Assembly: GCA_000934665.2 (NCBI GenBank)
Contig: JYFJ02000746.1
Location: 1-64,000, forward strand
Direction: 5' to 3'
Length of the DNA: 64,000 nt
DNA from: Catajapyx aquilonaris
Lineage: Eukaryota
Shown here piece after piece: positions 415 to 47,643 of the stretch; within the stretch, counting starts at the first letter, position 1, and every line of letters starts with the position of its first letter. A program made the position numbers and the translations under genes. The notes beneath the pieces were generated by a model that had not been told where the DNA came from, did no database searches, and was given only the letters and a program-made list of their open reading frames with translations.

Positions 415-9024
<8,610 letters not shown>

Positions 9025-14506: not shown

Positions 14507-16938
14507 TGGGACTCCAGCTAGGAAAAACAGCACAAAAATTAATAACACATTCTTAGCGTGGCATACCATGCTGTTTATTATTTTTGTAACACGCTGTCAA
14601 TGCATGATTGCAAATGCTTTTCCGGTATGGATTGAGCCAGATTAGTGACTAAAGTGCAGGAAGTGACTAAAGTCCTCATGTGCAGATCACTAATACTGTG
14701 TGTCACCCGCCATTGATTCCAATTGCAATGTAACGGTTTCGCCCCGGCCCACACAACAAGGTTAACAAATTGGCAAACTCTCAATAATATTTTGAACCCA
14801 TAGTTTTTGGAGGGGGGCTAGAACTCACATTATTTATAAATTCCTTTCCCACCCTCACACCGGAAACCTAAATTTATCTCAGCAGCGATGTTGCCATGTA
14901 CTCAACCCCAAAAAGGTGTTAAAAATGTTGGTGAATAATCTGTGAAGTGTCACTTGATCAAGGGCCGGCGACCTTGATAAGGTCCTAGAGAAGCTCTAGA
15001 GGTCAACTTTTTAAGACCAGACGAGGATTATCCCTTTTGTATAAAGACCTTTTATGATGTGAACACCAACGAGGAGGTATTTATTACTGATACATTGAAC
15101 CCTTTTTCAAAGACTACTTTTTCGGGGCTAGGACTAGACCGAACTAGCTCACCCTGACTTTCACTACTGGAAAGTAGTGTCGAGTACCGTTCTTTTTTGT
15201 TTATTAAAAAATCCTGTAAAACCCGCTTCTGTAGTATTCAGGACGCATTTTATAGCCTCGCAAAAAAAAATTCGCGACATCTTGGTACGCGAGCTTCCGG
15301 GAATATTTTGCTATCGAAAAAACTTCCGGAATGGTATGTACAGTCAAATGCAAAAAAACACAATTGTGGGTTTATCATCACGTGCAAATTACATGCCATG
15401 AAATAATACAATGGAGGGTATTGTCCTATGCGTACCTGTTGGGGAAGTTGCACGACTTCCCAAGAATATTGTCGTCGACAGCACCGAAAAAATGTCACGT
15501 ATGTCACACACATCAAACTGGGTCAAATAGGTTTATTGTTAAGAGCTGAGGCAACTAATTGCTCGCGGAAAATTATAAATATAAAAAATATACAGGGTGA
15601 CTCAAAAGTCTGTACCGTACATAAAATACACGCAAGTACAATTTGACCTAAAGTCATACATGATAAAACGGAAGTATCGCGGATTATATTCACTAGTGAT
15701 TCACTTATGGACGCACCATCCTGTGACATTGCCGGTACCGGTATATCCTTGACCTCATCCCAAAATAGCGGAGATTATCGATCCCCCTCTCCTTATTGAT
15801 TCACCCTTCACTGATTTACCATAAAATGCTGGGGGTACTCACTTTTGTTGCGACTTTTTTTTTTTTTTGAACACTATAAAATTTGATTGGTTGTGTCTTT
15901 AGGGTGTGTGCACCTTTGGATGTCCTGTGGGCTACTAAGGAGGGTACAGACGTGTAGTGGAACCCGGTCTGGGCACGTAGATCATGTAGGATGCACGCGC
16001 GTAGACGTGTAGGACGTCACACTGTTCACGTGCTTGGATCCTGCAAGCCAATAGGCGCAGGGGGTGTGTTCGTGATTCCCCCTCTAGAGCTGCTTGTAGT
16101 GTCTCCCCTTCAAATAAGAAACACCCCCTCGAACCACCCACACAAGGCCGACCCTTCAAAAAAAAAAAATTATTAAAAAATATTAAGTTAAAAAAAAATC
16201 AGTGCAATATACCACATTTCCGATCAGGTCAATGCAAATTTGCATAACCGGCTGTGTGTGTTTTTTTAAAATAAAGTGGCCTCGAGGTGGTTGCGTATAT
16301 TTAATTGGCGAGTCTTTAATGACTGGGTATAATATGACAGGGAGGCGCCTGATTTCCTGCCTGGTTTTTGTACTGGTACAGTTCAGGTGGTATTTATAAG
16401 CCCCCCCCAAGATCTGGATATAACCAGTGCGATGCAGTTCTTCAAAAATAGTGCCACCTGCAATTTTGCATTTGTTTGCAAATACACACTCCACGTGTGA
16501 TGATGAGTGTGCCCCCTCCAAAAAATCATTACATGCCAACAATGCGACGTTGCATTGGCCCATAAACATGTCGAATAAGAGGCATCAATTTAGTCCAATT
16601 AAAGTATAGGCTCCAGTGTGGATGGGGGAACGTTAACTTGTCAACTGACAGTTCAAGGATACATAATCCGTGACAATAAGTTGGAGCTTCCCGCAACAAT
16701 CCCCCCTCTCAATTATTATTATTATTATATCACGTGATTATGGGCTGTTAGATAACGGTCGTTATCTCACTGCCATTTTTTTTTTAAAAAAAAACGTGTG
16801 ATTGACATTACTCCCATCTAGTAAATAAGCCCATCAGTTGGTCCGTCGTGTGTACATGTCAATTAACAATTAAAAGATTATTAAGGCCGGGTTTAACCAT
16901 AGTTTAGCCGAGCAGGTTATATTATTTATTTAATAATG

Positions 16939-20901: not shown

Positions 20902-23259
20902 ATGGGGCTCGAAAGCACAATGATTTGGTGAGTTGAAGGATATTTTTTAAGGTTTAAAGTGACATGGAAAGGTCAAATCAGGTCAGAAACTATCGAATCA
21001 CGATCACTGAACATGATGGGAGGTCAAGGGTCATCGAATATTGGGAGGGTCAGCAGGTGTTCTGACCTGGAACAATAAGGCTTATATTTATGTTCCAAAC
21101 TGAATGGAACACTAGGTTTAACGGACGTTGAAAGGTCAAGTCAGGTCACAGTGATCGGATCACGATCACTGAACATGCTGGGAGGTCATAGGTCATCGAA
21201 TATTGGCAGTCGGCTGGTGTTCGGATCTTTTTATGTTCCGAACCATTCTGAACTGTACGGAACAATTCGCATGACTGCCATTCTGAACTGTACGGAACAA
21301 TTCTCATGACTGCCGTTCTGAACTGTACGGAACAATTCTCATGACTGCCGTTCTGAACTGTACGGGACAATTCTCATGACTACCTTTCTGAACAGTACGG
21401 AACAATTCGCATGACTGCCATTCTGAACTGTACGGAACAATTCGCATGACTGCCATTCTGAACTGTACGGAACAATTCGCATGACTGCCGTTCTGAACTG
21501 TACGGAACAATTCTCATGACTGGCTTTTTTCCCCCTTCTAGTGTGGACAACAGCGACTACATGCGCAATGGCGACTTTGTTCCAACACGCTTGCAGTCGC
21601 AGCAGGATGCGGTCAACATCATATGCCACTCAAAGGCTCGTGCGAATCCGGAGAACAATGTTGGATTGTTGACTCTGGCCAAGTAAGGTTTTGGGATAAT
21701 ACCAGGGCTTCATTTAAATGGTTTTGAAATTTTTTTGAACCAATATAATTTCCATTCTCCATTCCAATGCATTCTTTGCCATTTCTACCACTTGGCTCTG
21801 CCTTTTTTTCTCCCCCGCAGCAGTTCGGAGGTGTTGGCCACCCTTACAACGGATGTCGGTCGTATTCTGTCCAAGCTGCATCAGGTCACGCCTTGCGGGA
21901 ATGTCAATCTCCTGACTGGAATACGCATCGCTCATGTCAGTACTTACTGACTACTTGGACCATTAGACGTAAAGGTTTGATGCTAATTTTTGCTTTTATA
22001 GCTGGCTCTGAAGCATCGGCAGGGGAAGAACCACAAGATGCGGATCGTGGTTTTTGTAGGCAGCCCTGTGGTGACGGACGAGAAGGAATTGGTCAAGTTG
22101 GCCAAGCGTCTCAAAAAGGAGAAGGTCATGGTCGATGTCATCAACTTTGGTGAAGAGGTGGGTTCCCATACCATGGTTTTTTTCTGCAGATGAACTTGAA
22201 TAATTATTTAACGTAAGGCCGTAGAAGAAACGGTAACCGCAGCTTACATGTCGTTTTTTGCAGAGTCACAACACGGACACCTTGACGCAGTTTGTGAACA
22301 CTCTGAATGGGAAGGAAGGAACTGGAAGCCACCTGGTGACTGTATCTCCTGGTCCGCACCTAGCGGATGCTCTCATCTCCTCCCCAGTGGTACAGGGTGA
22401 GGATGGCGCAGGGGGAGCTGGACTTGTGGGCACCTCTGGCTTTGAATTTGGCGTGGACCCCAACGAAGATCCTGAGCTTGCACTGGCTCTCCGCGTGTCC
22501 ATGGAGGAGCAGCGCCAGCGCCAGGAGGAGCAAGCTCGCCGTGCCAGGGAGCAGTCTGCACAGGAGGCCGGCGGCACCACTGGAGACGTCGTAATGGCCG
22601 AACCAGGAGCAGACACGCCTGCCATGGACACTTCGGCGGAAGAGTCCCTTCTGGAAAAGGCACTGGCCATGTCCCTGGAGTCCACTGAGCGAGAAGGCGG
22701 AGAAGTTGCAGGAGGAGGAGTCGGAGCGGCAAGGGTCAGCAGCACAACCAGCGTCGGAAGTGGCGGAGGGAGGGGCGGAAGTGGGTTGGGGGTTGGAAAC
22801 CTGCCGGACTTCTCCCAGATGAGTGAGGATGACCAGATCGCCTACGCCATGCAGATGAGCATGCAGGATGCCCGTAAGTGTCTGCACGGCATGTTCCTTT
22901 GTTGAAGCTGCAATTAAATGGATTGTCATCTGTTTCCAGAGGAGCAGGCCCACCGTGGAAAGGGAAGCGAAGTAGGCTCCATGGAGGTGGACGAGGAGGA
23001 GGATTACGGCGAGGAGGAGGAGGAAGGCGGAGAAGGGAGGCGCGGGGACGAAGACTACTCCGAGGTCATCAGTGACCCTGCTTTCCTGCGCAGTGTGCTG
23101 GAGAACTTACCTGGTGTGGACCCACAGAGTGAGACAGTCCGATCAGCTGTAGGGTCATTGGCCACCCAGCAGCAGGAGCAGGAGCAGAAGAAGAAGGACG
23201 AGAAGAAGAAGGACGAAAAGAAGAAGGACGAAAAGAAGGATGCGAAGCGCAAGAAGTGA
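20902..23259 (+). CDS. PSMD4: 26S proteasome ubiquitin receptor Rpn10/S5a; exons 20902-20927, 21542-21682, ~21821-21935, 22002-22157, 22264-22873, 22940-23259
   Basis: [34 protein letters not shown] vWA start, [46 protein letters not shown], three UIM-like segments, [17 protein letters not shown] and a lysine-rich tail. Confidence 0.98.
21243..21522. repeat. 35-bp minisatellite x8 in PSMD4 intron 1 (CCATTCTGAACTGTACGGAACAATTCGCATGACTG)
   Basis: Head-to-tail near-identical units without spacers, ending about 20 nt before the exon 2 acceptor. Confidence 0.95.
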
Positions 23260-23410
23260 AGGAATAAAAGGAAGAGTGTACACGTAACTTAAAACAGCCC
23301 TTTTTTTGGTATGAATTGCTGAATTTAGCATTGCTTAAAATTTGTGTTTCCCTATCCTTTTTTTGCTAAGGGATTAATAAAGAGTAGGTAGTGGGAACAA
23401 TAATCAGTTT

Positions 23411-24120
23411 TTAATTTCTGAATGTGCTTGGTCCTGGGTCGACCTCTTCAGGCTTGAGGCCCCTGCGGCACCTGTTGAGAATGAAGTGCTTCTCCGTCTC
23501 ATCTGCCGTGCGCAGGTAGCGGCCTGAGTCATGCTGTTCTATACGATCAGTCTGCGGGTCGTAGTACCCATCGCAAGTGTCTCGGTGGTCTGGGATCAGC
23601 TGTGGTGGCGGGTCGCGGTTGGACTGCAGGGAACGTCCAGCAGGCTTGACCTGATCCAAGATCTCATTGTAGAACCTGTGGGGTGAGAATTGTCAATATC
23701 AACAGCAATGCCTATGGATGCACAAGTTAATTACCTCCTGTCTGGTGGTATGCAGTAATTCCACTTCTTCGGCTGGTAGACCAGCCCATCGTTGAAGGTG
23801 TAGACTCCATCCGTGTTTTTTCCGTCGATCCAGCTTCCTTCGAACTTGCCTCCGCTTGGGTAGAACAAGATCCCGTGTCCGTGGAAGCATCCGTCCTTCA
23901 TCCCACCCCTGTACTGCACACCTGCGGGACACCCAAACATGTCAGTTGCCTCTGGCGATGTAACCCAAGCGTAACTGACAATACCTGTAGCTAGCATGAA
24001 GGACCCTTCAATTTCCATCCGACCACCACGGTAGTGTCCCTGGTACTCGCTTCCGGTACAGAAAGTCTCACTCTTATGCTCATCAAGACTAGTCACTTTT
24101 CCAGGTCCTTCGCTCGTCAT
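23411..24120 (-). CDS. MORN5: MORN repeat-containing protein 5, copy A (3 exons, intact)
   Basis: TGSEYQGHYRGGRME..YRGGMKDGCFHGHG..YTFNDGLVY..WNYC..DRR/FYNEI..KPAG..DGYYDP..RYLRTAD..CRRG follows the MORN5 pattern (TGSKYIG..GRMEG..MKDGMFHGEG..WHYC..DRRFYTEI..LKPAG..DGFYNP..FLRNAD..CRKG). Confidence 0.92.
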
Positions 24121-24344
24121 TTTGTAAATATTTCATATGACCTGAATATCATTTTTGAAAATTTAGCTCGAAGTTTTGGATTGAACATGGCTTCTCACAC
24201 ATACTGATTGGCACGACCTGCACTAGTCACCTAGCAATGGCGGCCGTTTTGAAAGAACGCGCACTGTTTTCTCACAAAATCCGGGCTCAAACTGTGACCT
24301 GACCTGACCAAAACCTGTGCCGGTGACCATCTGACCTACCAGCC

Positions 24345-24500
24345 ATGCTTCGAGCCCTGTGACCCCAAAAATGACCCCACGTGGGTATAAATCTACTAAA
24401 TTTTGTTACCTGATTCAGAGAATTAACTTTTCATTCCTCTTTCCAGCAACGTCCAACTCGACTCAGAGTTGTTGTCACACTGTCATGGCAACGTCAACTG
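24345..24500 (+). pseudogene. Degenerate COX15 exon 1/exon 2 remnant
   Basis: ATGCTTCGAGCCCTG-TGA (MLRAL*), the donor CAC/GTGGGTATAAA and GTCATGGCAACGTCAAC match the COX15 5' region at 35431-35605. Confidence 0.85.
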
Positions 24501-24521
24501 CAATTTAGCCCAGTCTACATA

Positions 24522-26316
24522 TAGTCCGGGTGCTAAGGGGTTGAACTTTGCATTTTGTGACAAAAGTATGAAACTCGGTACACTTGTCCTTTGGACACTT
24601 CTGATCATATCTGGACGTGGAGCCACGATGACCCACCCCGGTTGTGGTCCATTTCGCAGGGTTTCCATATCTACCAGATGCAGCATCCTTTTAGGACCTT
24701 GTATTCGGTGACAAAAACATGAAACTCGCCCCAATTGGTCTTTGGACACTATTGAACATGTCTGGAAGTGAGGCCACTATGGATGACCCCGCTGGGGGTC
24801 ACTCGCAGGGTTGCCAGATCAGATCTAATGGGCTCTCTAAGTAAACTATGTGAATAGGGAGCTTGCATTCGGTGGCAAAGACGTGAAACTCGGTACAACA
24901 TAGTTCTTTGCACACTTCCGAACATATCTGGACCTGGGGACACGATGACCCACCCCGGTGGAGGGTACTATCATGGTGTTGCCAAATCTAACAGACTGTG
25001 CAACATGCGTTTATTTTTGAAATAATGAGCTTGCACTTGGTGACAAAGCCATAAAATTTGGTACGTTTAGTTCTTTGCACACTTCCGAACATATCTGGAC
25101 GTGGGGTGACGATGACCCACCTCGAGGGAGGGCACTATCGCAGGGTTGCCGTATATAGTCGGGGCAACCTAGAAATACTCCATATGAATAGGGAGCTTGC
25201 ATTCGGTGACAAAGCCATAAAACTTGGTACGTTAGTTCTTTGGACACTTCCGAACATATCTGGACGTGGAGCCACGATGACCCACCGAATGCAAGCTCAT
25301 TATTCAAAAATAAACACATGTTGCACATTCTGTTAGATATGGCAACCCTGCGATAGTGCCCTCCCTCGGGGTGGGTCATCGTGGCTCCACGTCCAGATAT
25401 GTTCGGAAGTGTGCAAAGAACAATTCTACCAAGTTTCACGTCTCTGTCACCAAATGCAAGCTCCCTATCAAAATATAAACGCATGTTGCACAGTCTGTTA
25501 GATTTGGCAACACCATGATAGTACCCTCCACCGGGGTGGGTCATCGTGTCCCCAGGTCCAGATATGTTCGGAAGTGTGCAAAGAACTATGTTGTACCGAG
25601 TTTCACGTCTTTGCCACCGAATGCAAGCTCCCTATTCACATAGTTTACTAGAGAGCCCATTAGATCTGATCTGGCAACCCTGCGAGTGACCCCCAGCGGG
25701 GTCATCCATAGTGGCCTCACTTCCAGACATGTTCAGTAGACCAATTGGGGCGAGTTTCATGTTTTATCAGTGTTTTATCACCGAATGCAAGGCCCTTATT
25801 CATGTAAAGGTGTGCAACGCATGTTCGATTTGGCAACTCCGCGATAGTGACCCCTGGCGAGGCCACCAGGGGTCACCCACCGTGACCCCATGTCCAGATA
25901 TGTTGAGATGTGTTCAAAGAACTACCGTGCCGAGTTCCACGTTTTTATCACCGAATGCAAGCTCCCAATTCACATGATCTTCGGAGAGATGTATGTTTGG
26001 TCCATTAGATCTGGTAACCCTGCAAGTGACCCACAGCGGGGTCAGTCATCATGGCCCCACATCCAGACATGTTCAGAAGTGTCCAAAGACCAATTGTGGC
26101 GAGTTTCATGTTTTTGTCACAGAATACAAGGTCCTAAAAGGATGCTGCATCTGGTAGATATGGAAACCCTGCGAAATGGACCACAACCGGTGTGGGTCAT
26201 TGTGGCTCCACGTCCAGATATGATCAGAAGTGTCCAAAGGACAAGTGTACCGAGTTTCATACTTTTGTCACAAAATGCAAAGTTTGGGTCAAATTTGTCC
26301 CTTAGCACCTGGACTA
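24522..26316. mobile_element. Non-autonomous palindromic (foldback) DNA transposon with TAG..CTA termini and a 3-bp ATA target-site duplication; possibly Academ-like
   Basis: Ends TAGTCCGGGTGCTAAGGG / CCCTTAGCACCTGGACTA. 24545-24749 is the near-exact reverse complement of ~26080-26285. Internal ~140-160 bp subrepeats switch orientation near 25285. ATA on both flanks (24519-21, 26317-19). The paralogous empty site TAC-ATA-AACTCATG lies near 33894-33907. Confidence 0.88.
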
Positions 26317-26344
26317 ATAAACTCATGTCAGCGAGCTCATGTTC

Positions 26345-26600
26345 TCAATATGTTGGGCCAAGTAATTTGGATCGTACCAGGGCACCATTTTAATGGTTTT
26401 AATATTTTTTGGCCTAATTTTCCGCAGTAATTGGGAGATGCTGGCCACCCTTACTATGCGGATGCCAGTCGTATTCTCTCCAAGTTGCCCATAAGCGAGT
26501 TCCTTTCCTGCGCAGTACTTACCTGGTGTGGACCCACAGAGTGAGAGAGTCAGCAGCAGGAGTATGAGCAGAAGAAGAACGCAAAACGCAAGAAGCGAAG
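26345..26600 (+). pseudogene. Degenerate, internally deleted PSMD4 remnant (exon 2 end/exon 3 joined to the last exon)
   Basis: GGCCAAGTAA..ACCAGGGC..CCGCAG..GGCCACCCTTAC..TCGTATTCT.TCCAAG matches 21677-21880, then jumps to CTTTCCTGCGCAGT..ACTTACCTGGTGTGGACCCACAGAGTGAG (23081-23133). Confidence 0.85.
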
Positions 26601-26714
26601 GAATAAAAGGCGTCCATGTAACTTGAAAATTTTTGTATTCTTTGCCAGATTTAGCATTACTTAAAATTTTGTTGTTTCCTATCATTTTTTTGCAAAGGCA
26701 GCAATGAGTAGTTT

Positions 26715-27072
26715 CTAACTCCTGAAAGTGGTTGGCCCTGGGTCGACCTCCTCAGGCTTGAGACCCCTGCGGCACTTGTTTAGTGTGAAGAGCTTCTCAG
26801 TCTTGTCTGCAGTGCGCAGGTAGCGGCCTGAGTCATGCTGGTGAATACGATGTGTCTGTGGGTCGTAGTATCCATCGCATGTGTCTCGGTGGTCTGGGTG
26901 CAGTGGGGGTGGCGGGTTGCAATTGGCCTGGAAGGAACATCCAGCAGGTTGGACCTCATCCAAGATCTCATTGTAGAAGCTGGATTTGTGGGAATAAATA
27001 TGATATAAGAGCAACATCCGCCACGTTGTCGAAAAATAATGCACAAGTTAATTACCGCCTGTCTGGTGGTAT
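26715..27072 (-). pseudogene. MORN5 copy B, 5'-truncated (last exon, intron 2 and a few codons of exon 2)
   Basis: The FYNEILDEVQPAG...CRRGLKPEEVDPGPTTFRS* exon is intact, but homology to copies C and E stops abruptly after GTCTGGTGGTAT at ~27072. Confidence 0.88.
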
Positions 27073-28063
27073 TATAGTACACTGAAGAGAGTGAAAAGTA
27101 TTTTTCAAGTCACTGCAGCTCTGAAAATAAGGACTCTACGTGGAAAAGGTATACTTATACTTTTTTTTGTGGCATACAATATGTTTCTGTACAACCTTTG
27201 TTTGTCACATTTCCTCCTGAGAAGCATAGTTCGCTCAGAAAAGACTTTTAACTCGCTTCAAAGTAGCCAATCCGCAATTACGGGCCTCCAGGACGAAAAC
27301 GGGCGTGGCGCCATATCTGAATTTGAAGAGTATGGCTCTCAGGGACATTTGTACCAAATTTCATGCTTTCTTCACCAAATGCACGGTTGACCCATTATTC
27401 AACGTCCGGATTCCTGATAACCCAACCTTTTTTTTTTCTCCGGTGATCACACTCCTCTACTCCGTTCGTCTTCATTTATTCGGGTTCTTGGCCTGGGGAA
27501 GTGCAGCAGGGGCCAGTGGGTGCACTGTCGCTCCCGCGGCGGGTTCGGCGGCTTGGGCGGCTACATGGTATGCACAAGGACATGGGAGAGTGACCTGGTC
27601 CTTTAAGATGTGAACAGGAATACTGAGCTGAAGTTGTAACAAGCCTGTTTACCACTGCCATTTTGAACCTCTCAAAGGGTAGGCCGTACCCGATAGTAGA
27701 CAGTAGGCCCTACCTCTGGAGCGCTGTGGGACAAAATTTGGGTCGCAATTAATTTTGAGACTACCTCACAAAATTAAGCAATTTTAAAGAATCCACTACT
27801 TAGCTTGGATCTTTTGCTAACACAATGTGTATTTTTTTTGCATGTTTGTCACATTGAACAATTGCTACACGTAATTTCTAACAACCTAATGCAACATCGC
27901 CCAATGTTCCCTGTTGCTGGGCAAATTTGGGACATGACGTGGAGTACTTTGGGACAATGATAATATTTCATGATTACAAGCCAATATAAGGAAAAGTCTT
28001 ATTATTACTTCTTGTGAGAGCTAACAAGTGACAACTTAAGACCTATCATGGGATATCCATTGG

Positions 28064-28064
<1 letters not shown>

Positions 28065-28135
<71 letters not shown>
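28065..28135. repeat. (TTG)n microsatellite
   Basis: About 23 uninterrupted TTG units; explains the poly-Cys and poly-Leu ORFs. Confidence 0.97.
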
Positions 28136-29994
28136 ACGACAGTGCAGTGGGCCAAATAACACTCTCAAAAGACTCAAGACGTCTGTTTGTTACAGCACAA
28201 TTACAATTGAATCATATAGAAATGGGAAAGTGCCATATAAGTGTTTTCTGAAATTAGGAACTTCAATATTAAGCACATTGAATTTCTATACGATTGGTTC
28301 GAATTATTGCCATGAAACATTCATGCAGAATCGTCACCTCTTTTAGGTGCTGATTTTAACTCTAATGTTTAATTTTTCACATATAAACGTTAATTTGTGA
28401 ATTTTAGAGGGTCTTTTTTGATTGGACCAAGTCTGTTAGGATGAGTTTAGTTTTTTCCCAAATTTTTTTTTTCTTTTCAAAATAAAACCCTACATACTGC
28501 TCTGAGCAGTTTGCAGCAGTAATTTTTACGAGTCGTTCCATGCAGTACTTGAGAATTGCTTGAGTAAGACCTATGGTACAGCTTAAATCAATTGGTGAAG
28601 GTCTTACATGAGCCAGCCTTGTTTCAGTACTTTCATTCCGCCACGGAGGTCTTACTACCCTTTTTTTCACTGAAGGGAATGTTTTTGCTCTTATTTCAGT
28701 TCTTTCTTTAAACCCCTTCGCAATACCAGCCTAGGTTGTCGCTTACATGTACTCTGAAGACAAGGACAAGATAGTGCTACAGTGATATATACATATCATA
28801 CTAATAGTCCAGTCAAATAATTGTTGATGGACCTAGAACAAACTGCAACAGAAATGGTGTCAACTGATTCTATAGTAAAAAATGGCGCTGAAAACGATGG
28901 AACACAGTCTGAGACTGTCCGGTCGCCCCAAAAGCCGCCATCTTGAAAAAATGGCGGCCAAATCGGATATGTTGAACAAAAACATTTTTTTATCACGGAA
29001 ACGACTCGGGTTTAATGGAAAGTGAACTGGACATAAATGAAACAGCATAGAATATACTTCAAGACGACACTTTCATCTTCTCTGTAGAGTGCATAATGTC
29101 GAATCTAGACAAGCATTCTCAAGTATCGCATTTGCCATCTTATGGCAAACTGAGTCTTTCATGGTGAATTGGGATAAAAACAAGAGTTCTTTAGGCCTGT
29201 ATGTGAAGTAGTATACGTGAATAACTGCATTTCATGCATTAATAACATTACATGGATACATAGATCTCCAACTACAGTAGCCTCCAGATATAACAGACTT
29301 CAATGGACTGCGGAATTCAGTCTGTTACAACCGAGATCTGTTGTAGGAAGATACACAGGGCATAATATATGGCAGTATGGCCGGTCCCAGCATACTTCCA
29401 AAAGGCCCTGTGCATATTCACTCCGGATATAACAGACTCATTTTTCACCTCACATCGGCTATATTAACAGACAATTTCTTGGCCCTTCTGTGGGAAAATA
29501 TGCTGTTTTCGATTACTCGGCGTCTACTTCCCACGCGAGGAAACCACTGGACTGAAAAGTGTACACTGGAGTACCTAATTCAAGGAGTACCAAGGAGTAC
29601 CAAATAGTAAAGTACCTATCAACCAACATCATCATCTGCGTAAAACTGGCTCTGGCCAGAATCCATGCCAACCCATTTCTGACTGGCTGGATGGCTCTGT
29701 CTGGATTTTGGATGCTGGGTTTCCGGATGGATGGCTCTGTCTGGATTTTGAATGCTGGGTTTGGAGATAATAGACCTGCAAGAGATTGACCAATGCATCG
29801 ATCCTAGTCAGTCGAATCACCACGTCCGAGTGCGGATAGGAGAGGTCCTAATAATCCGGGAAATATTCGATCTCGTCGATCTTGTCAAAGTGTTCCGCAA
29901 CATCTCCTCCTCCTTCGGTCGTTAAACTCTGTAGCGCCGATTGGGCTTCACTCGACAACATCGCGGATGTGTATGCGTAGGGCGATGTAGAGCG

Positions 29995-30060
29995 TGAGAC
30001 TGTCAGCAGCAGCAGGAGTATGAGCAGACGAAGGACGCAAAACGCAAGAAGCGAAGGAAT
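29995..30060 (+). pseudogene. Short PSMD4 last-exon remnant next to the 3' end of MORN5 copy C
   Basis: GTGAGAC.GTCAGCAGCAGCAGGAG..GAAGGACGCAAAACGCAAGAAGCGAAGGAATAAAAGG matches 26541-26610 and the PSMD4 3' end. Confidence 0.8.
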
Positions 30061-30188
30061 AAAAGGAATGGTACATGTAACTTTAAATTTTTTTGTATTC
30101 ATTGCCAGATTTAACATTACTTAAAATTTTGTTGTTTCCATATAATTTTTTGCAAAGGCCTTAGAGTAGTAGCAGCAATGAGCAGTTT

Positions 30189-30909
30189 TTAACTCCTGAA
30201 AGTGGTTGGCCCTGGATCGACCTCCTCAGGCTTGAGACCCCTGCGGCACTTGTTTAGTATGAAGAGCATATCAGTCTTGTCTGCAGTGCGCAGGTACCGG
30301 CCTGAGTCATGCTGGTGAATACGGTGTGTCTGTGGGTCGTAGTATCCATCGCATGTGTCTCGGTGGTCTGGGAGCAGTTCGGGTGGTGGGTTGCGATTGG
30401 ACTGGAAGGAACGTCCAGCAGGTTGGACCTCATCCAAGATCTCATTGTAGAAGCTGGATTTGTGGGAATAATGTCATATAAGAGCAACATCCGCCACATT
30501 GTCGAAAAATAATGCACAAGTTAATTACCGCCTGTCTGGTGGTATGCAGTAATTCCACTTCTTCGGGTTGTAGACCAGTCCATCGTTGAAGGTGTAGACA
30601 CCGTCCGTGTGTTTTCCGTCGATCCAGTTTCCTTCGTACTTGCATCCGCTTGGATAGTGCAAGACTCCGTGTCCGTGGAAGCATCCGTCCTTCATCCCAC
30701 CCCTGTACTGCACACCTGCGGGAGACACCAAAATATTAGTCATCTCAGAAGATCCAAGAGCAACTGACGATACCTGTAGATAGTGTGTACGACCCCTCAT
30801 CTTCCATCCGCCCACCACGGAAGTGTCCTTTGTACTCGCTTCCAGTGCAAAAAGTCTCACTACTGTCCAGCTCAATAATTTTTACTTTTGCAGGTCCTTC
30901 GCTGTTCAT
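30189..30909 (-). CDS. MORN5: MORN5 copy C (3 exons, intact; 30909-30774, 30715-30529, 30453-30189)
   Basis: MNSEGPAKVKIIELDSSETFCTGSEYKGHFRGGRMEDEGSYTLST/GVQYRGGMKDGCFHGHG..DRR/FYNEILDEVQPAG..TFRS*. GT-AG phases are consistent. Confidence 0.88.
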
Positions 30910-32106
30910 CCTGAAGTTTTTGTAGGACCTGAAATATGAACATCATCATCATCATCATCAAAGAATTATTTATTTTCATTTGGTCAACATTCGGCAATGG
31001 TCACTTGGACACAGCACACTTCAACAACATTAATCTCAAAATATTGACTGGATAAACATAAGACTATCATCAAAAACCATCATTTTGTGATTTTTTTTGG
31101 AATGGGGGTGGCGACATGAGAAGCTCAGCATAGGTGACAGCACTGCGCTTGAGGCCTCAGCAGATATGAGCCCCAAAATACAGGTTGGAGTGAATGGAGG
31201 TTAGGGCAACCTGGGGAATCGGTGCCCCCCCCCNCCCCCCCCCCCCCCCAAATATGGCGACCTCAACATCAGGCGTCAATGCACTGAACCGCACTGAGCT
31301 ATTTCATCCTATTTGTCAGGCTTCCTTGCGAACGTCTGAGGCGCATTGTAAGCCGCATAGTTAGGATAAAGGCTTCCGCCTAAAAAAAAAGTCTGGTACC
31401 CAAATTGTCACCATCACAACTCGCACAGTGTTGCAACAGTCATGGCATGTTCATTTGATACGATACTGTAACATATATTTAAACTACGTGCAGTGAGAGG
31501 CGTGAGTGAGCCAATATTTTCAGGTACTGCAGCAAGAGGGGCCATGGGCTGTCGAGGAAGGCGCCCAAATTCCCCTAGCTCTTTATTCTCGGCGGCGACC
31601 CGGAACGGATCAGACGTACTGTACTTGGCTGCGCTGATGTCAGTCACCCCCACCCGTGATCTAGGGGCCAGTGAACTCGGGGGGTCGATGGCCGACGACT
31701 ATCAACCTCCCTTGACATCGAGATGAAGCTGGCCTGAACCCTTGGCCGATCATAATAAGTAGGTCACCTTTTTTTTTTTCGCAGCCGAGGTTTGCCGCAA
31801 AGAGCTCGGGGCCGAATTCGGCGAGATTGGATCTGTTTGGAATTAATGGCCTGGCGACAGGGCAGTTGATGGGGGAAATATTTGGGTTGTTTCACTTGTT
31901 TGAAAATTATGTCCAGGGCAGCAGGTGCTATGGTGGGGGGCTGTTGTGCGAGGCTACAATTGGGGCCATTGAAATATCGTTGAAGGTGGAGGATGGGCCC
32001 ACGTGGGTATAAAATGCGACTAAAAAAAATTACCTGCTTTAATTATAATTGTCCTTTCCTCTTCTAGCGGCCTCCGATTACTCAACAATTATTCCCTAGA
32101 CGTGTC

Positions 32107-32538
32107 ATGGCAACGTCAACAGCGTCGTCGTCAATGGCAGCAGCGACTGGAAGCAGGGTCGTCGGCTGGTGGTGGGTTGGATGCAGCGGGATGGTCTTTG
32201 GAGCGGTGGTCCTCGGAGGTGTCACCAGGCTCACGGAGTCCGGCTTGTCCATGGTCACCTGGAAGCATGCAGGATGCCTGTAAGTGTCTGCACGGCATGT
32301 TCCTTTGTTGAAGCTGCGACTAAATGGATTGTCATCCACTTCCAGAGGAGCAGGCCCACAGTGGAAAGGGAAGCGAAGTAGGCTCCATGGAGGTGGACGA
32401 GGAGGAGGATTACGGCGAGGAGGAGGAGGAAGGCGGAGAATAGAGGCGAAGACTACTCCGAGGTCATCAGTGACCCTGCTTTCCTGCAGTGTGCTGGAGA
32501 ACTTACCTGGTGTGGACCCACAGAGTGAGACAGTCTGA
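32107..32538 (+). other. COX15::PSMD4 duplication-junction chimera (possible spliced 121-aa ORF or pseudogene)
   Basis: 31993-32266 copies COX15 exon 1 end, intron 1 and exon 2. 32264-32625 copies PSMD4 22858-23259. The junction shares AGC. Exons 32107-32279 and 32346-32538 form an open frame. Confidence 0.6.
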
Positions 32539-32754
32539 TCAGCTGTAGGGTCATTGGCCAGCCAGCAACAGGAGCAGGAGCAGAAGAAGAAGGACGAAAA
32601 GAAGGATGAGAGGCGCAAGAAGTGAAGGAATAAAAGGTAGAGTGTACACGTAACTTAAAAAAAGCGTTGCTTAAAATTTGTGTTTCCCTATCCTTTTTTT
32701 GCTAAGGGATTAATAAAGCTCGGAGTAGGTAGTGCTGGGTACAATAATCACTTT

Positions 32755-33470
32755 TTAATTTATGAATGTGCTTGGTCCTGGGTCGACCTCGTCAGGCTTG
32801 AGGCCCTTGCGGCAGAAATTGAGAATGAAGTGCTTCTCCTTGTAATCTGCAGTGCGCAGGTAGCGGCCTGAGTCATGCTGGTATATACGATCAGTCTGCG
32901 GGTCGTAGAATCCATCGCCCGTGTCTCGGTGGTCCGGAAGCAGCGGCGGTGGCGGGTCGCGGTTGGAATGCAGGGAACATCCAGCAGGCTTGACCTCATC
33001 GAAGATCTCTTTGTAGAACCTGTGGGGTGAGAATTATTGTCAATATCAACAGCAATGCTTATGGATGCACAAGTTAAATACCGCCTGTCTCGTGGTATGC
33101 AGTAATTCCACTTCTTCGGGTTGTAGACCAGCCCATCGCTGAAGGTGTAGACTCCATCCATGTTTTTCCCGTCGATCCAGCTGCCTTCGAACTTGCCTCC
33201 GCCTGGGTAGGACAAGATCCCGTGTCCGTGGAAGCATCCGTCCTTCATCCCACCCCTGTACTGCACACCTGCGGGACACCCAAACATGTCAGTTGCCTCT
33301 GGCGATGTAACCCAAGCGTAACTGACAATACCTGTAGGCAGTGTGAAGGACCCATCATCTTCCATCCGCTCACCACGGAACAGTCCCCGGTACTCGCTTC
33401 CGGTACAGTAAGTCTCACTCTTCCGCTCCTCAGTACTGCTCACTTTTCCAGGGCCTTCGTTCGTCATCAT
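32755..33470 (-). CDS. MORN5: MORN5 copy D (3 exons, intact; closest to copy A)
   Basis: MMTNEGPGKVSS..TGSEYRGLFRGERME../GVQYRGGMKDGCFHGHG..DRR/FYKEIFDEVKPAG..TGDGFYDP..CRKGLKPDEVDPGPSTFIN-TAA after splicing both introns. Confidence 0.9.
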
Positions 33471-33699
33471 CTTTTAATAATTCTTCTGACCTGCAATGTG
33501 TGACATAATTTTGAAAATTTATCTCTAAGATTAGGAATAAACATGGCTTCCTACACATATGATTACTATAACCTGGACTATAGTCACATAACAATGGGGG
33601 CCGTTTTGAAAGAACTCGCACTGTTTTCTCACAAAAATTGGGCTCAAACCTGACCTGACCGGCCTAACACCTGCCCGGTGACCTCCTGACCCACCAGCC

Positions 33700-34170
33700 A
33701 TGCTTTGAGCCCTGTGACCCCAAAAATGAACCCATGTGGGTATAAATCTACTGCTTTTTCCTTTACCTGATTCAGAGAATTAACTTTTCATGACTCTTCC
33801 CACCGACGTCCAATTCTATTCTAAGTCGTTGTCACACTGTCATGACAACATCAACAGCAGTTTAATTACCCCAGTCTGCAGTGTGAACTGTGTTACATAA
33901 ACTCATGATCTCAATATGTTGGGCCAATAAGTAATCGTACCAGGGCGGCATGGTTTTAATATTTTTTGACCTCACTTTCCGCAGGGAGATGCTGGGGCCA
34001 CCCTTACTACAAGGATGCTGTTCGTAATCTCTCGAAGTTGTCAATCAGCGAGTTGCTTTCCTGCGCAGTACTTACCTGGTGTGGACCCACCGAGTGAGAC
34101 AGTCAGCTGCAGGGTCATTGGCCAACCAGCAGCAGGAGCAAGAGAAGGACGCAAAACGCAAGAAGCGAAG
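33700..34170 (+). pseudogene. Older COX15-5'/PSMD4 junction remnant (uninterrupted paralog of 24345-26600)
   Basis: ATGCTTTGAGCCCTGTGA..GTGGGTATAAA..GTCATGACAACATCAAC (COX15-derived), followed by PSMD4 exon 2/3-derived and last-exon-derived sequence. Confidence 0.82.
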
Positions 34171-34303
34171 GAATAAAAGGCGTACACGTAACTTCAAATT
34201 TTTTGTATTCATTGCCATATTTAGCATTACTTAAAATTTGGTTGTTTCCCTATCATTTATTGCAAAGGGCTTATTAAAGAGTAGTGGGAGCAATGTGCAG
34301 TTT

Positions 34304-35017
34304 TTAACTCCTGAATGTGGTTGGCCCTGGGTCGACCTCCTCAGGCTTGAGACCCCTGCGGAACTTGTTTAGTATGAAGAGCATCTCAGTCTTTTCTGCA
34401 GTGCGCAGGTACCGGCCTGAGTCATGCTGGTGAATACGATGTGTCTGTGGGTCGTAGTATCCATCGCATGTGTCTCGGTGGTCTGGTTGCAGTGGGGGTG
34501 GCGGGTTGCGATTGGACTGGAAGGAATGTCCAGCAGGTTGGACCTCATCCAATATCTCATTGTAGAAGCTGGATTTGTGGGAATAATGTGATATAAGAGC
34601 CACGTTGTCTAAAAATAATGCACAAGTTAATTACCGCCTGTCTGGTGGTATGCAGTAAAGCCACTTCTTTGGCTTGTAGACCAGTCCATCGTTGAAGGTG
34701 TAGACGCCATCCGTGTGTTTTCCGTCGATCCAGTTTCCTTCGTACTTGCATCCGCTTGGATAGTGCAATACTCCATGTCCATGGAAGCATCCGTCCTTCA
34801 TCCCACCCTTGTACTGCACACCTGCGGGACACCCCAAAGTATTAGTCGTCTCAAGCTGATGTATATCCAAGCGTAACATACCTGCAGATAGTGTGTACGA
34901 CCCCTCATCCTCCATCCGCCCACCACGGAAGTGTCCTTTGTACTCGCTTCCAGTGCAAAAAGTCTCACTACTATCCTCCTCATTACTTCTTAGTTTTGCA
35001 GGTCCTTCGCAGTACAT
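34304..35017 (-). CDS. MORN5: MORN5 copy E (3 exons, intact; closest to B and C; head-to-head with COX15)
   Basis: MYCEGPAKLRSNEEDSSETFCTGSEYKGHFRGGRMEDEG../GVQYKGGMKDGCFHGHG..DRR/FYNEILDEVQPAG..TFRS*. Confidence 0.9.
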
Positions 35018-35430
35018 CTTGTATAGTTTTAGTAGGACCTGAAATATTGTATGAACATTATCTAATCATCAAAGAATTATTTATTTTCATTTGGTCAACA
35101 TGCGGCAATGGTCACTTGGACACAGCACACTTCAACAACATTAATCTTAAAAAAATGGACAGGATAAACATAAGAACATGATCAAAAACCATCATTTTGT
35201 GATTTTTTTTTTGAAATTTCGGATCAAACATGGCAGCCTCCTGCGTTTGGACCAAACATGGCTGCCTACACCAAACCTGCACTAGCCACATGCAACACAG
35301 CAATGGCGGCCGCCTTGTGAGAAACCGCACGTTTTCCGCCTAAAACCGGGTCTAAACTGCGACCTGAATTGACCTTGGTGTGACCTGACCTGCTCAATAC
35401 TTGCGCTGCTGACCTCCTGACATACAAGCC
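35018..35430. promoter_or_regulatory. Probable bidirectional promoter between MORN5-E and COX15
   Basis: 413 bp between divergent ATGs. Contains ATGGCGGC (YY1-like) and clustered TGACCT half-sites. Related sequence lies upstream of copies A and D. Confidence 0.6.
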
Positions 35431-37125
35431 ATGCTTCGAGCCCTGTCCATGTGCCGGGCGACCCCAAAATGGGCCCACGTGGGTATAAAATTTGACTTTT
35501 GTTTTCAAAAAAAATTACCTGCTTTAATTATAGTTGTCCTTTCCTCTTCAAGCGGCCTCCGATTACTCAACAATTATTCCCTAGACGTGTCATGGCAACG
35601 TCAACAGCGTCGTCGTCAATGGCAGCAGCGACTGGAAGCAGGGTCGTCGGCTGGTGGTGGGCTGGATGCAGCGGGATGGTCTTTGGAGCGGTGGTCCTCG
35701 GAGGTGTCACCAGGCTCACAGAGTCCGGCTTGTCCATGGTCACCTGGAAGCTGTTCGGTGAGACTCCGCCGCACTCAAAAGTCGACTGGGAAGTTGAGTT
35801 TTACAAGTACCAGCAGTTTCCTGAGTTTAAGATGTGAGTTGTACGCCGCCTAATTATCCTGACATTGCCGTAACAAAGTGATTGAAAATTTGGCAGTAAA
35901 AACAAGGATATTACGCTGGATGAGTTCAAGCGGATCTGGTGGATGGAGTACCTTCACCGCACTTGGGGGAGGATGATTGGAGCTGTGTATTACCTCCCTG
36001 CTGCGTATTTATGGGCACGGGGATACTTTGACCGGAGAGGGAAGATACGAGTGTGCGTCGCAGGCGCTCTGCTTGCCTTTCAGGTGATGACGAGTAATTT
36101 GTCGTTAATCAGACAAAAAAAATGTATGGAATTTGACATTATTGCTAAAATCTGCACCATCAAACGTCGAAACTGCGAACCTATGGCATCAGAGTTAAAA
36201 CGGAAAATTGGCACTTCTTTTGGCTCTCCTGTAAGACGATAATGATGTTGAATTCGTCCTTTCGTCTGATCGACGACGAATTATTAATTTTTTTTTTGAA
36301 AATAATAATCTGGGTGGTTCATTTCGCATCGTTTGCTTGTAATTATTAGGGGTTGCTTGGTTGGTACATGGTTCGATCTGGTCTGGAGGACCGGTTCCAC
36401 GGCCCAAGTGACGTTCCTCGTGTGTCGCAGTACCGACTGGCTGCGCATCTCTCCTCAGCTTTCCTTCTCTACGGGATCACACTCTGGTCCGCACTTGACA
36501 TATTGCTGCCAGCTCAGGTAAGGGTTTCGTTTTCACCTGTCGTTTTACAATATACCGTTTCTTTCCATCTCAGGCAGCAACATCGACTGCAACCAGCAGA
36601 TTAGTCCGCAAGCTGGCCATGGGCAGCAAGGGCATGATCTTCCTCACAGCTCTGTCAGGTGCGTTTGTCGCTGGATTAGATGCAGGCCTGGTTTACAACT
36701 CGTTTCCAAAGATGGGCGACAGCTGGATCCCAGATGATGTGATAGCAATACAACCGGTTGTGCGGAACATCACTGAAAACCCATCCACCGTTCAGCTTGA
36801 CCACAGGCTCTTGGTTAGTAGCCAGTTGATCTCCCAATGCGGTTCATAGCAAGATGGATTCTATTGACAGGGAACTACCACGCTGGCTTTGATATCCGGA
36901 GTTTGGATTCTGTCTCGCCGGAGCCGCCTCCCTGGAAGAGCCTCCGTGGCCGTTAATGCGATGGCGGCAATGGCCTGGCTGCAAGTGTCATTAGGTATTG
37001 CAACTCTTCTCATGTACGTTCCGACCCCGCTGGCAGCCTCTCACCAATCGGGTTCCTTGGTCCTACTGTCACTTGCAATATGGCTCTCACATGAACTCAA
37101 ACTTCTCTCCAAGCTGCCCAAGTAA
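35431..37125 (+). CDS. COX15: Heme A synthase COX15, multi-exon
   Basis: Presequence-like [23 protein letters not shown].., then [88 protein letters not shown] and LAASHQ. Stop TAA at 37123-37125. Confidence 0.97.
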
Positions 37126-38054
37126 AATGTAAAATCCAAGGAGGTAAGAAAAATAATATATATGCTTTTCATACTTCTAAATCATCTCAATCTTTTTTAT
37201 TAACCTGTTCGGCAAATAACCCAAACGACAAAATTAAAACTTCTCCGGGGGGGAGGATAGGTCAGTACGAACGTTCTCATACCCTTATATAATTGTTACT
37301 ATCTTGTACATCCCTGCGTGCTTGACTGTGATGGTCTCCATTTATATATATATTTATATTTTTTGGGAATTTTTTTTTGTCTCTTTTTTAAATATCTCCG
37401 TTTTAAGTACACATACTCTATAGTTGGCATTTTTGTTATAACCACACACACAAACAGAAAAAAAAATTCAATTAACATCTTTGTTTTGTAACAACAGTGA
37501 GCATTTTTGTCTTAAATGTTTTTTTTTGTATATATATATATAGGGATTATGTACATTGTCTATTAAGTATGATAAAATTAATTTGTGGCACAAATGGGGG
37601 TTTTTTAAGGTGGGTCAACACACGGCAGTCCAGTCTTAATAAATTCCACAAGCTCTAGGTCAAATTCTTGCAACTATTACAGCCAAAAAAGATGATCCGA
37701 ATTAACCCATATTTTTGGGCGGCGGCGGAAAGTTACAAAATATTAACTAGCGGCTTGTGGTAAGTTAATACACTTGACTGGACCACCATGTATTTTTTCT
37801 TAAAAGGTGGGGTTTGGAACGGGGTAAAGGGAATTGGGGGGTCACATTCACACACGTGAACAATGCACACACTCACATGCGTGTGGTGAGCCAAACTGAC
37901 CAACCACCAGTGGGTATATTTTTATCACAGTTTTTTATCATATCCAAGTTGAGAGCTCACAACCGCAACGCCATCTTTGGTGGGGAAACAGTGGGGGGTG
38001 AGGTGGAAAGGAAGGGGGATTTCAGGAAGTTAAAACTGTGGGGGGTGAAAAGTC

Positions 38055-40892
38055 TCAGCTGTCGACTCTGGTGAGTCCGTCTGGATGATTGACGATGACC
38101 TGCACGACGTGGCCTGATGGTATCTTGGCATCCTCCAGCCGCAGTTTGTCCCCAAGCAGCTTACCACCGTAGAACCACCGTTGCCTGATGGCCTCCACTG
38201 ACTCTTGGCTCTGTTGAGACATCTTAAGCTCGCATTGTCAATACGACAACTCACACCTTAGGATGCGGACCACTTACCTGTAGCCTTCTCTTGGCAACTC
38301 CAACGGTGTCCGAGGAGAAGACGGGCAGTTTGTAGTCGTTGCCTGTGGTGGACAGACGGACCTTGAGCACCATCTCGGATCCAGTGGTACCGTCCACCGG
38401 CTCAGACCATTCTGCGGGGGAGTCCCTCCCCTCAGACTCCCGGATCATGTTAATCGGATAAGACAGGCAGTACACTGGGACCTGGTAACGGTTGCCCAGT
38501 TCATCGTAGCAATCAGTCAAGGAGCCTGGGAAGGAGTCGAGAGAGTGGTAGAAAAATGGTCACAACTAGTCGCGTTTCAAGCGATTTGATCAGAAATCGC
38601 CTTACATGTAAACGTGAGGTGACAATAACATTGCACATACCGGTGGGTAGTGAGACACTGGCTCCATCCAGGATGGCCTGTGCCAACTGGAAGTCCGAGG
38701 TCTCAGCAGCAATGGCAGCTGCCCTGAGGGCATCCCATATCTCCTTGCGTCCCTCGAAGGCTGGGGCTGTGTCCCAGAACTCATCACGTTTACTCCGAAG
38801 CTGCCCATCCGTCAGAGGTATGTCCGACTTCCAGCGGACACGCTCTTGCTTCAGTGGGTGGTTCTTTCCTACAAAACCGAGCAGAATTGTAATTGCACTT
38901 GATTTCACCCTCATTACTAGTTACGTATAACTAATTTAATATTTTTATGAACAGTTGATTCCGCAAATTCAGATTATAGCTCTACATTTTACAATTACTT
39001 CGAAGGGACATGTTGTGAGCAGGGTTTCTCACGCAAGAGTTGTCAAGATGCCATTTCCGTTCAAGCCTTCTAAAAGGTGATGCAGTTGTTATGACTCAAC
39101 AGGAGTGACCTGCAGATAAACATTATTCTGATGAGATGTCAACACATCCAGGATGAATAAGGACAGAAAACAAGGTCAGCGCACCACGGGCTTGACTCTT
39201 TTGTTTACAGAGTGACTGATGTGGAAATTCGGAATAGAGAGTTGACATTATGACGTGATGCAGAGCAGCATAATCAAAGATTCTGACTCCGCAGCAAATA
39301 TCTTTTTCTCCTAGTCAGTGCAGTTCATGTTTAACGATTAAGTTCATGCATCATACAATAGTTGAGTGTCTCGTCTATGATGCGGTGTATTACACTGCGG
39401 TGTGTTTCACTTCACGTTACAATTATTCATCGTCATGCATCACGGCTTTTTCCCCGAAAGACTGGAGTTGCCAGTGGATGGGGAGGATCTGGATATTTTG
39501 TGTTCTACAGTAACTCTGTACTGCTGTAGCTTCATGATAGTCGACCCCTGCTTAGCCTTTACAATAATTGCAGAACAAAGAGTTTCACTTTCAGGTGCGT
39601 CCATCGCTTTTTCTGACAATACAGCCAATCCTACCACAATTCCAGCCCTGCCTTTATCCCTATCTGATTATGTAAAACAACGACCTTGGTAAAAAAAAAA
39701 AAACGACGGCCTGACAACATTGCATTGTCTCGCATCATGTCAATATGATGAGCCCCAGCATGTGATCAGAATAGATTGGGAACCTACTTTCATCACGTGC
39801 TTCGGCTGCAACACCACAAAAAAAACCTACAGCCGCCCTCCAAATATGCAATCATCTGACGCAATCTGACAAATCGCACCATACCTAAATGAATCCAGCT
39901 TGCACGTAATTTACACCAGCCGCGTAAAAATTCAGCAACATTCACATAGGGTTAATAATTTTGATGGGGACTATTGTTCCTGCAGTCTGAGGTCCAGTAG
40001 GGGAATCTTGTGAATGTAATTCACGCAATTGTTACATACACATTGAACGTAATCCACGCCATTGTTACGCACAAATTGAATGTAACCCATGCAATTGTTA
40101 TGCACACATTGAATGTAACCCATGCAATTGTTATGTACTAATTGAATGCAAATCATGCAATTGTTACATACACATTGGATGTAATTCATCCGATTGTTAT
40201 GTACACATTGAATGTAGTACATCCAATTGTTACGTACACATTGAATGTGATTAATGCTATTGTTATGTATGCATTGAATGCGCATCATGCTATTGTTACG
40301 TACTCATTGAATGCGCATCATGCTATTGTTACGTACACATTGTAATTCATGCTATTGTTACACGTACATCCAAGTTTAAATCCACGTTTCATGTGAGCCA
40401 TTTATCAGCGATTTTGCAGCAATGTACAACGCTCAGCGAAAGTAGCAAACAATTGGTCTCATCGCTGAACTATATGTACATCGCCGATCAATCGCATGCA
40501 TGTAAAAGCGTCTAAAATCCTGTCTTTGCCGTCAAGGCAGGGCCAATATGTTCATAATACGTACGTAATATTGGCTGCAATTACCCAACCATATTGAAAC
40601 CACTGCTTGGTTCCAGGTTATTGACCTTCTTATGAAACGGGACAGTAAGTGTTCCATTATGTCGACCAATATGTGTCCACATTTTAAGTTGCTTCCAAGT
40701 GACCTTTGACCCCTCCCTAATCTGCCCCCACCTCTGCATCATCTTTTTCCGTGCAATAATTATTATTATCCGTGTGCAGCAGCATATGCGACACCACATA
40801 TTTTTACCTCCCCTGGAGCTGGTGGAGGCGTCTGAAGTGACGGCGCTTGTGGTGCTCCTCTCGCGCCGGATCCTCCCTACGCATCCTCCCAT
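38055..40892 (-). CDS. Ubiquitin domain-containing protein (UBTD1/UBTD2 family), 4 exons
   Basis: MGGC N-terminus (myristoylation/palmitoylation-like), [57 protein letters not shown], and a ubiquitin-like domain [24 protein letters not shown] at 38055-38057. Confidence 0.95.
40010..40362. repeat. 33-bp minisatellite, about 10 copies, in UBTD intron 1 (TGAATGTAA...CAATTGTTAYRYACACAT)
   Basis: Visible tandem units; they produce the 11-aa periodic ORF 39971-40288. Confidence 0.9.

Positions 40893-47565: not shown

Positions 47566-47643
<78 letters not shown>

Follow-up and report, generated by a model that had tools for sequence, protein, structure and literature searches.

A nested tandem array of MORN5 genes between PSMD4 and COX15 in Catajapyx aquilonaris

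A structural axoneme subunit that occurs in fixed amounts is an unobvious candidate for repeated duplication. Why, then, do several copies of such a gene, MORN5, stand side by side in Catajapyx aquilonaris? Mouse MORN5 lines the stalk of radial spoke 3 (RS3) and binds STYXL1 and residues 580–620 of CFAP91 (10.1101/2025.05.19.654877), and MORN5 has been described as a sperm-tail protein (PMC5526581). The copies were found in the 64,000-nucleotide stretch analysed here (contig JYFJ02000746.1, positions 1 to 64,000; hereafter the window), between the genes PSMD4 and COX15, and are called A to E from left to right. We consider it likely that they are a lineage-specific tandem expansion of the RS3 stalk protein, made up of functional sperm-axoneme genes under eased constraint.

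Copies A, C, D and E have three coding exons, GT-AG introns of 58–75 nt and stop-free frames of 195–196 amino acids (aa), and their products are 73–91% identical. In the three copies scanned, exon 2 matched the Pfam MORN repeat PF02493 with 23.2 (A), 28.1 (D) and 32.4 (E) bits, against a curated cut-off of 22.5. For the N-terminal half of copy A, MORN5 was the top match of 23 PDB sequences (9d2f_I, E 9e-20), and exon 3 of the same copy matched only 2 of 177,635 PDB sequences, both of them MORN5 chains (9fqr_Xu, E 2e-12). The top PDB match is MORN5, not MORN1-4 or RSPH1, and the Atlas cluster matched by the array copies is named MORN5 at 0.91. Compared with the solved MORN5, the four copies have about 20 additional N-terminal residues, and family-conserved residues such as P135, G137, Y139 and W172 are substituted in all four. 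Intron 1 of A (23922–23984) and D (33269–33331), 63 nt, and of E (34822–34881), 60 nt, is in-frame and stop-free; its retention would insert 20–21 residues between MORN repeats. The C intron (58 nt) is not in frame. Shared-word homolog searches returned 23 and 1 candidates, none reaching E 0.001, and a metagenome scan returned 2 loci from 127 stretches, neither convincing as MORN5 (40% over 46 aa in one, 10 matching aa in the other).

An earlier note on this DNA had listed four intact copies and a truncated copy B. All five stop-codon coordinates (23411, 26715, 30189, 32755 and 34304) were verified, the sequence motifs that divided the copies into subfamilies A/D and B/C/E were present as described, and comparison of the window with itself displayed the repeated units. 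The note had also placed a PSMD4 remnant to the left of each copy and COX15 5′ sequence to the right of A, C, D and E. PSMD4 remnants exist at B, C, D and E, whereas A adjoins the real PSMD4; COX15 remnants exist at A, C and D, whereas E adjoins the real COX15. Searching the genome by DNA, exon 2 and exon 3 revealed one further MORN5 copy, on contig G000:C10157 (1198–1857 of the extracted locus). This sixth copy is of decayed B/C type with its own PSMD4 remnant; its exon 1 has a 5-nt insertion, exon 2 a 20-nt deletion, and most of exon 3 is gone. Copy B and the sixth copy are pseudogenes. Another locus, G000:C539 (40% to exon 2), was rejected: by its frame it encodes a different MORN protein, and it was absent from the exon-3 search. 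No older MORN5 paralog was found among the exon-3 candidates, all six of which were scored. In a tree with the 24 of 41 homologs that are 120–200 aa long, the four intact copies formed one clade (100/100). The protein tree put D in a basal position (98/79, unstarred), which we set aside since non-coding DNA pairs A with D.

Four of five runs, all consisting of assembled contigs, were aligned to 28200–39900 at 85% likeness; A and B fall outside this segment and are visible only as cross-mapping contigs. The single-copy COX15-UBTD contig extended over 3.2–4.2 kb with 0 differences, at depths of 32, 32.5 and 28.5 in the three DNA runs. In the same three runs the depths of the exact D contig (33308–34085; 3/3 runs) were 36.6, 30.5 and 24, those of the exact E-upstream contig 32.7, 36.2 and 31.5, and those of two A-type contigs 32.4, 31.6, 16.2 and 39.1, 29.1, 33.4. 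B-type letters were seen at depths of 40.7, 29.3 and 28.8; those of the sixth copy appeared in two of the three runs (39.2 and 45.4). Eleven of the 12 values for the D, E and A-type contigs were thus 24–39, versus 28.5–32.5 for single-copy COX15. Alleles would show about half this depth, unlike these 11 values. Unique 31-mer stretches predicted from the window alone were 33308–34085, 35118–35580 and a stretch from 35722; the observed unitigs were 33308–34085 and one starting at 35722 in all three DNA runs, and 35118–35549 or 35112–35580. The read-graph break at 35722 is required by the junction at 32264–32266. In the read-depth check proposed in the earlier note, most copies thus had the depth of single-copy DNA, and the contigs broke where paralogs predict it. 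A second sample matched the COX15 and UBTD exons exactly. The array is real, and its copies are not uncollapsed haplotypes.

Sequence comparisons support three nested duplications as the origin of the array: an A/E pair, a duplication of the pair, and then B/C. The synonymous distance (dS) was 0.39–0.43 between subfamilies, 0.12 for A/D, 0.11 for C/E, and 0.05–0.07 for B versus C and E. In the first step the copied unit would have reached from intron 2 of PSMD4 to exon 2 of COX15 and given an A-type and an E-type gene; decayed remnants of this step persist beside A, B, D and E. The second step would have copied the pair, with an AGC microhomology at the junction, and the dS values of its two products are near the pooled non-coding divergence (120/1261). 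The third step would have given B and C, which have 541 bp in common. A deletion in the PSMD4 remnant is common to B, C and the sixth copy and is missing from E, and copy B breaks where a high-copy repeat starts. At least 150 genome matches were found for the spacer part 27080–28050 (40 of 234 candidates scored), and the summed read-contig depth over 28200–29763 was 2,100–65,000. A palindromic element has inserted into the A–B spacer. This element (24522–26316) has terminal inverted repeats, internal sub-repeats and a 3-bp target duplication, and its empty site is found in the D–E spacer. The nested history that the earlier note had proposed agrees with the breakpoints, the shared indels and the synonymous distances, and the pair-duplication junction that it had named is exact.

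Divergence of the step-2 units is very uneven along their length (chi-square p 1e-10). A and D share a 126-bp identical tract, which includes all of intron 1 (permutation p 0.0004). In the sixth copy, which is of E type, a tract of 78 bp is A-type (permutation p 0.0002); 7/7 diagnostic sites inside it are A-type, as against 3/52 outside. We read the identical tracts and the uneven divergence as gene conversion between copies.

Selection on the reading frames was assessed with a codon model of 194 codons from the four intact copies. The overall ratio of nonsynonymous to synonymous substitution rates (dN/dS) was 0.36 (<1 at p 9e-8). By branch it was 0.54 for A, 0.81 for D, 0.24 for C, 0.51 for E and 0.18 for the internal branch. 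The internal value differed from the terminal one (0.55; p 0.004), and the terminal branches were jointly below 1 (p 0.018). Purifying selection acts on the reading frames, and it weakened about threefold once the pair had been duplicated. Over 585 coding bases neither pair had an indel (D begins with one additional Met), versus 16/984 and 12/756 in flanking passenger or non-coding bases, end gaps excluded; as the earlier note had stated, only MORN5 stays intact in each unit. Were one copy neutral, the absence of coding indels would have P ~0.01 per pair. Within-pair changes fell in 9/68 conserved versus 29/110 variable columns (p 0.04; 41 homologs, 17 columns unscored).

Upstream of A, D and E lies a conserved block whose splice donor would belong to a presumed untranslated first exon, and we infer that the block is their promoter. 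In E the block coincides with the 150-bp space that it shares head-to-head with COX15. Upstream of C no homology to the block was found (31100..31990); the dispersed repeats lying there gave 29 genome matches (27/27 candidates scored). Read depth over the E block was single-copy (32.9, 33.5, 30.3), which argues that no C version is hidden in the gap; the depth hole itself proves nothing. Recent loss of the promoter is probable for C, which may not be transcribed. D, the fastest-evolving copy, is the only one with both a private promoter, as presumed from the block, and a private 3′ end. The block of A contains an RFX X-box-like site with one mismatch to the pattern; the matches in D and E are worse. 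The A site alone is not significant: 20 such sites occur in the 64-kb background (~0.3/kb). In run X5 spliced contigs were seen for COX15 and UBTD but the MORN5 exons of C, D and E were left uncovered, which is evidence neither way.

What the sequence shows is the structure, the breakpoints, the intactness of the frames and the selection acting on the protein; from there, the expansion that we favour would have run as follows. The ancestral MORN5 would have been wedged between the housekeeping genes PSMD4 and COX15, so that with each duplication dead PSMD4 and COX15 fragments would have come along, and new copies would have obtained a promoter of their own, a 3′ end of their own, or the two together. 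The first two copies would long have been held under strong purifying selection, as the internal dN/dS suggests. After the pair duplication constraint would have eased (dN/dS ~0.5), with frames intact and with gene conversion from time to time. Sperm-axoneme MORN5 variants are most likely still encoded by at least A, D and E; as putative binders of the CFAP91 helix within the stalk of spoke 3, these variants would serve dosage plus a partial division of labour in the testis. Several points weigh against this account. The three DNA runs are one sample, possibly the assembly's own source; one of the 12 depth values (16.2, A-type contig, one run) is half the single-copy level; and among the contigs listed none bridges the N at 31234, therefore the order across the gap rests on scaffolding and on the C right-flank homology resuming at 31993. 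Taken singly, dN/dS = 1 was not rejected for A (p 0.37), D (p 0.65) or E (p 0.28), with p 0.06–0.65 over all terminal branches. If frameshifting indels alone are counted, the probability given above for a neutral copy rises to ~0.04, and E replaces a 95%-conserved Cys (C177F). Both the transcription of the MORN5 copies and the binding of CFAP91 by array copies are putative, the latter carried over from mouse.

Uncollapsed haplotypes set in tandem by the assembly could be suspected from the short-read scaffold, the unbridged gap and the half-depth contig, but coding DNA differs by 6–18% among the copies and by 6–10% within pairs, whereas the adjacent single-copy DNA has no differences over its 3.2–4.2 kb. 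Together with the full depths and the microhomology junction with its matching read-graph branch, this largely refutes such an artefact, which we find hardly credible. Sperm competition or other conflict might instead have driven adaptive diversification, giving distinct MORN5 variants by positive selection as in Sdic. Site models placed ~12% of codons at dN/dS ~2.3 (M8 v M7, p 0.035; M8 v M8a, p 0.018), a test allowing multi-nucleotide mutations gave p 0.049, and D, at 0.81, yet has the top score against the family profile (202 bits). M2a v M1a, however, gave p 0.11, no branch exceeds 1 and only four sequences are involved, which leaves positive selection on the copies borderline. A/D differences are also denser in exons (60/588) than in introns plus left passenger DNA (20/588; p 4e-6), but the excess is gone against all A/D non-coding DNA (73/705; p 1.0) and was rejected as stand-alone proof of positive selection; the identical tract over intron 1 suggests conversion rather than slow introns. 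We hold adaptive diversification to be possible but doubtful. Birth-and-death without benefit, in which one or two copies work and the rest are redundant, drifting and still visibly whole, accords with the death of 2/6 copies, the state of C upstream, the near-neutral D, and repeat insertions at three array sites. It accords poorly with both subfamilies having been held at dN/dS 0.18 over dS 0.34, with four frames free of indels and stops despite ~1 indel per 62 non-coding bases, and with changes that spare conserved columns; we judge it unlikely.

In Drosophila the spoke genes are testis-only or undetected, except RSPH3 and a general chaperone, according to the text of PMC6367277; extended from Drosophila, motile spokes may be restricted to sperm across arthropods. 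The arthropod cuticle family PF00379 gave 66 matches among 70 candidates in the Catajapyx genome, which marks it as that of an arthropod. RSPH3, CFAP61, AKAP14 and CATIP were found at one locus each (counts are lower bounds) and CFAP91 at two, G000:C1823 and G000:C2308. The CFAP91 paralogs are 62% identical over 626 codons, with dS 1.3 and dN/dS 0.19 (8 chosen frames); the CFAP91 duplication therefore predates the MORN5 array. Where they align with mouse residues 580–620, the paralogs differ at 9/41 residues, with a net charge of +1 versus −6. The predicted MORN5-binding helix is much more acidic in the C1823 paralog. One could imagine more than one kind of RS3 stalk, with the two long-retained CFAP91 paralogs pairing with different positively selected MORN5 paralogs, so that the type of spoke 3 would differ between doublets, sperm stages or sperm morphs, but we rate this as quite improbable.

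Table 1. Features of the MORN5 array and its anchors (positions of the window)
Feature	Position	Strand	Remarks
Intact PSMD4/Rpn10, 6 exons, 455 aa	20902..23259	+	Left anchor, tail-to-tail with copy A; spliced stop-free model, all introns GT-AG; Pfam VWA_2 and UIM
MORN5 copy A, intact, 195 aa	23411..24120	-	Exons 24120-23985, 23921-23735, 23675-23411
Presumed promoter block of copy A, then old decayed COX15 5′ remnant	24216..24501		Aligns to 35275-35608; one-mismatch RFX X-box-like site at 24226
Palindromic foldback insertion, like a miniature inverted-repeat transposable element, ~1.8 kb	24522..26316		Inverted arms in self-BLAST; sits at old junction
Old PSMD4 remnant left of B (intron 2/exon 3 pieces and last-exon tail)	26356..26612	+
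MORN5 copy B, 5′-truncated	26715..27072	-	Open exon 3, intron 2, only 17 nt of exon 2
Repeat-rich spacer	27080..29900		Begins at B break point
PSMD4 last-exon remnant left of C	30004..30060	+
MORN5 copy C, intact frame, 195 aa	30189..30909	-	Exons 30909-30774, 30715-30529, 30453-30189; without ancestral promoter block
Two dispersed repeats with scaffold gap (N at 31234) between	31100..31990		Occupy place of presumed C promoter block (E equivalent 35211-35468)
Young COX15 5′ remnant (exon 1 end, intron 1, most of exon 2)	31993..32266	+	94.7% to 35469-35751; Pfam COX15-CtaA
Pair-duplication junction, 3-bp microhomology AGC	32264..32266		Common to COX15 (35749-35751) and PSMD4 (22858-22860)
Young PSMD4 3′ remnant	32264..32645	+	8-, 2- and 30-nt deletions
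MORN5 copy D, intact, 196 aa, fastest-evolving	32755..33470	-	Exons 33470-33332, 33268-33082, 33019-32755
Presumed promoter block of copy D, old COX15 remnant, old junction, old PSMD4 remnant	33570..34180
MORN5 copy E, intact, 195 aa	34304..35017	-	Exons 35017-34882, 34821-34635, 34568-34304
Presumed head-to-head promoter block of E and COX15, with presumed non-coding MORN5 first exon	35275..35430		Conserved in A, D, E
Intact COX15, 6 exons, 392 aa	35431..37125	+	Right anchor; Pfam match; spliced contig in run X5

The anchors and neighbours of the array have features of their own. At 455 aa PSMD4 is long; it carries both Gly-rich and acidic inserts, and its tail is built of KKDE repeats (22264–23259). 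Its intron 1 contains a 70-bp tandem repeat at 21243–21527 (~4 copies, 92–98% alike). A UBTD-type gene (37164–38920, − strand) with Pfam UBD and ubiquitin matches lies tail-to-tail with COX15 and has a spliced contig in run X5. Among the other genes visible as open frames, we take 635–8935 (+) to be a Brr2/SNRNP200-like helicase, 13345–14596 (−) a glycogen-targeting PP1 subunit-like gene, 41997–45916 (+) MMS19-like, 47016–53595 (−) a two-domain haem peroxidase-like gene and 59749–61524 (−) ionotropic-receptor-like.

The array copies resemble the MORN5 of mammalian RS3 (9d2f chain I, 9fqr chain Xu; 10.1101/2025.05.19.654877) in having N-terminal MORN repeats and a MORN5-specific C-terminal part, and the partner genes CFAP91, CFAP61, AKAP14 and CATIP are present in the Catajapyx genome; one MORN5 chain is listed there, whereas four intact diverged copies exist here. 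Sdic of Drosophila melanogaster, as described in the text of PMC7475035, is likewise a tandem sperm-related array made by segmental duplication over neighbour genes; there too copies were converted, transposons inserted and paralogs diverged. Head-to-tail tandem copies bearing neighbour-gene remnants are found in both. However, Sdic is chimeric from sw and AnxB10 and younger than ~1.4 million years, and its testis function and positive selection were demonstrated, whereas in the MORN5 array no chimeric fusion was found: the copies retain the three-exon MORN5, the remnants are broken and on the opposite strand, there is no dynein chain, and the copies, at dS up to 0.4, are far older and have a putative role in the testis. 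Also comparable are the Drosophila testis-only genes CG15143/CG15144/CG15145 (FAP91/MAATS1) and CG30275/CG30268 (FAP61), duplicated subunits of the spoke-3 base or stalk (PMC6367277), apparently in tandem, judging by their gene numbers. These duplicates of the calmodulin-spoke complex concern a different subunit, and MORN is absent from the text of that paper. In Tetrahymena paralogous subunits are a route to spoke types, and Mrnn04 is the MORN5 ortholog and a likely RS3 part (PMC12399478, in the text). Spoke heterogeneity rests there on knockouts and proteomics; here it is a hypothesis only.

With duplicated testis-only spoke-base genes on record in Drosophila, the view of the earlier note that the array is unusual went too far. 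As a class of event, the tandem expansion of sperm genes is well known in arthropods, and the surprise is moderate. No report of multi-copy MORN5 was found in the literature searched (mostly open papers, titles and abstracts, without supplements such as gene-family tables). What is new is copy C without the ancestral promoter block, the conversion tracts, and purifying selection followed by relaxation. Small and clean, the locus has dated breakpoints and lets one follow a gene as it leaves behind a promoter and a 3′ end that were shared. Its four natural variants, together with the two versions of the CFAP91 helix, could test key residues at the spoke-3 pivot.

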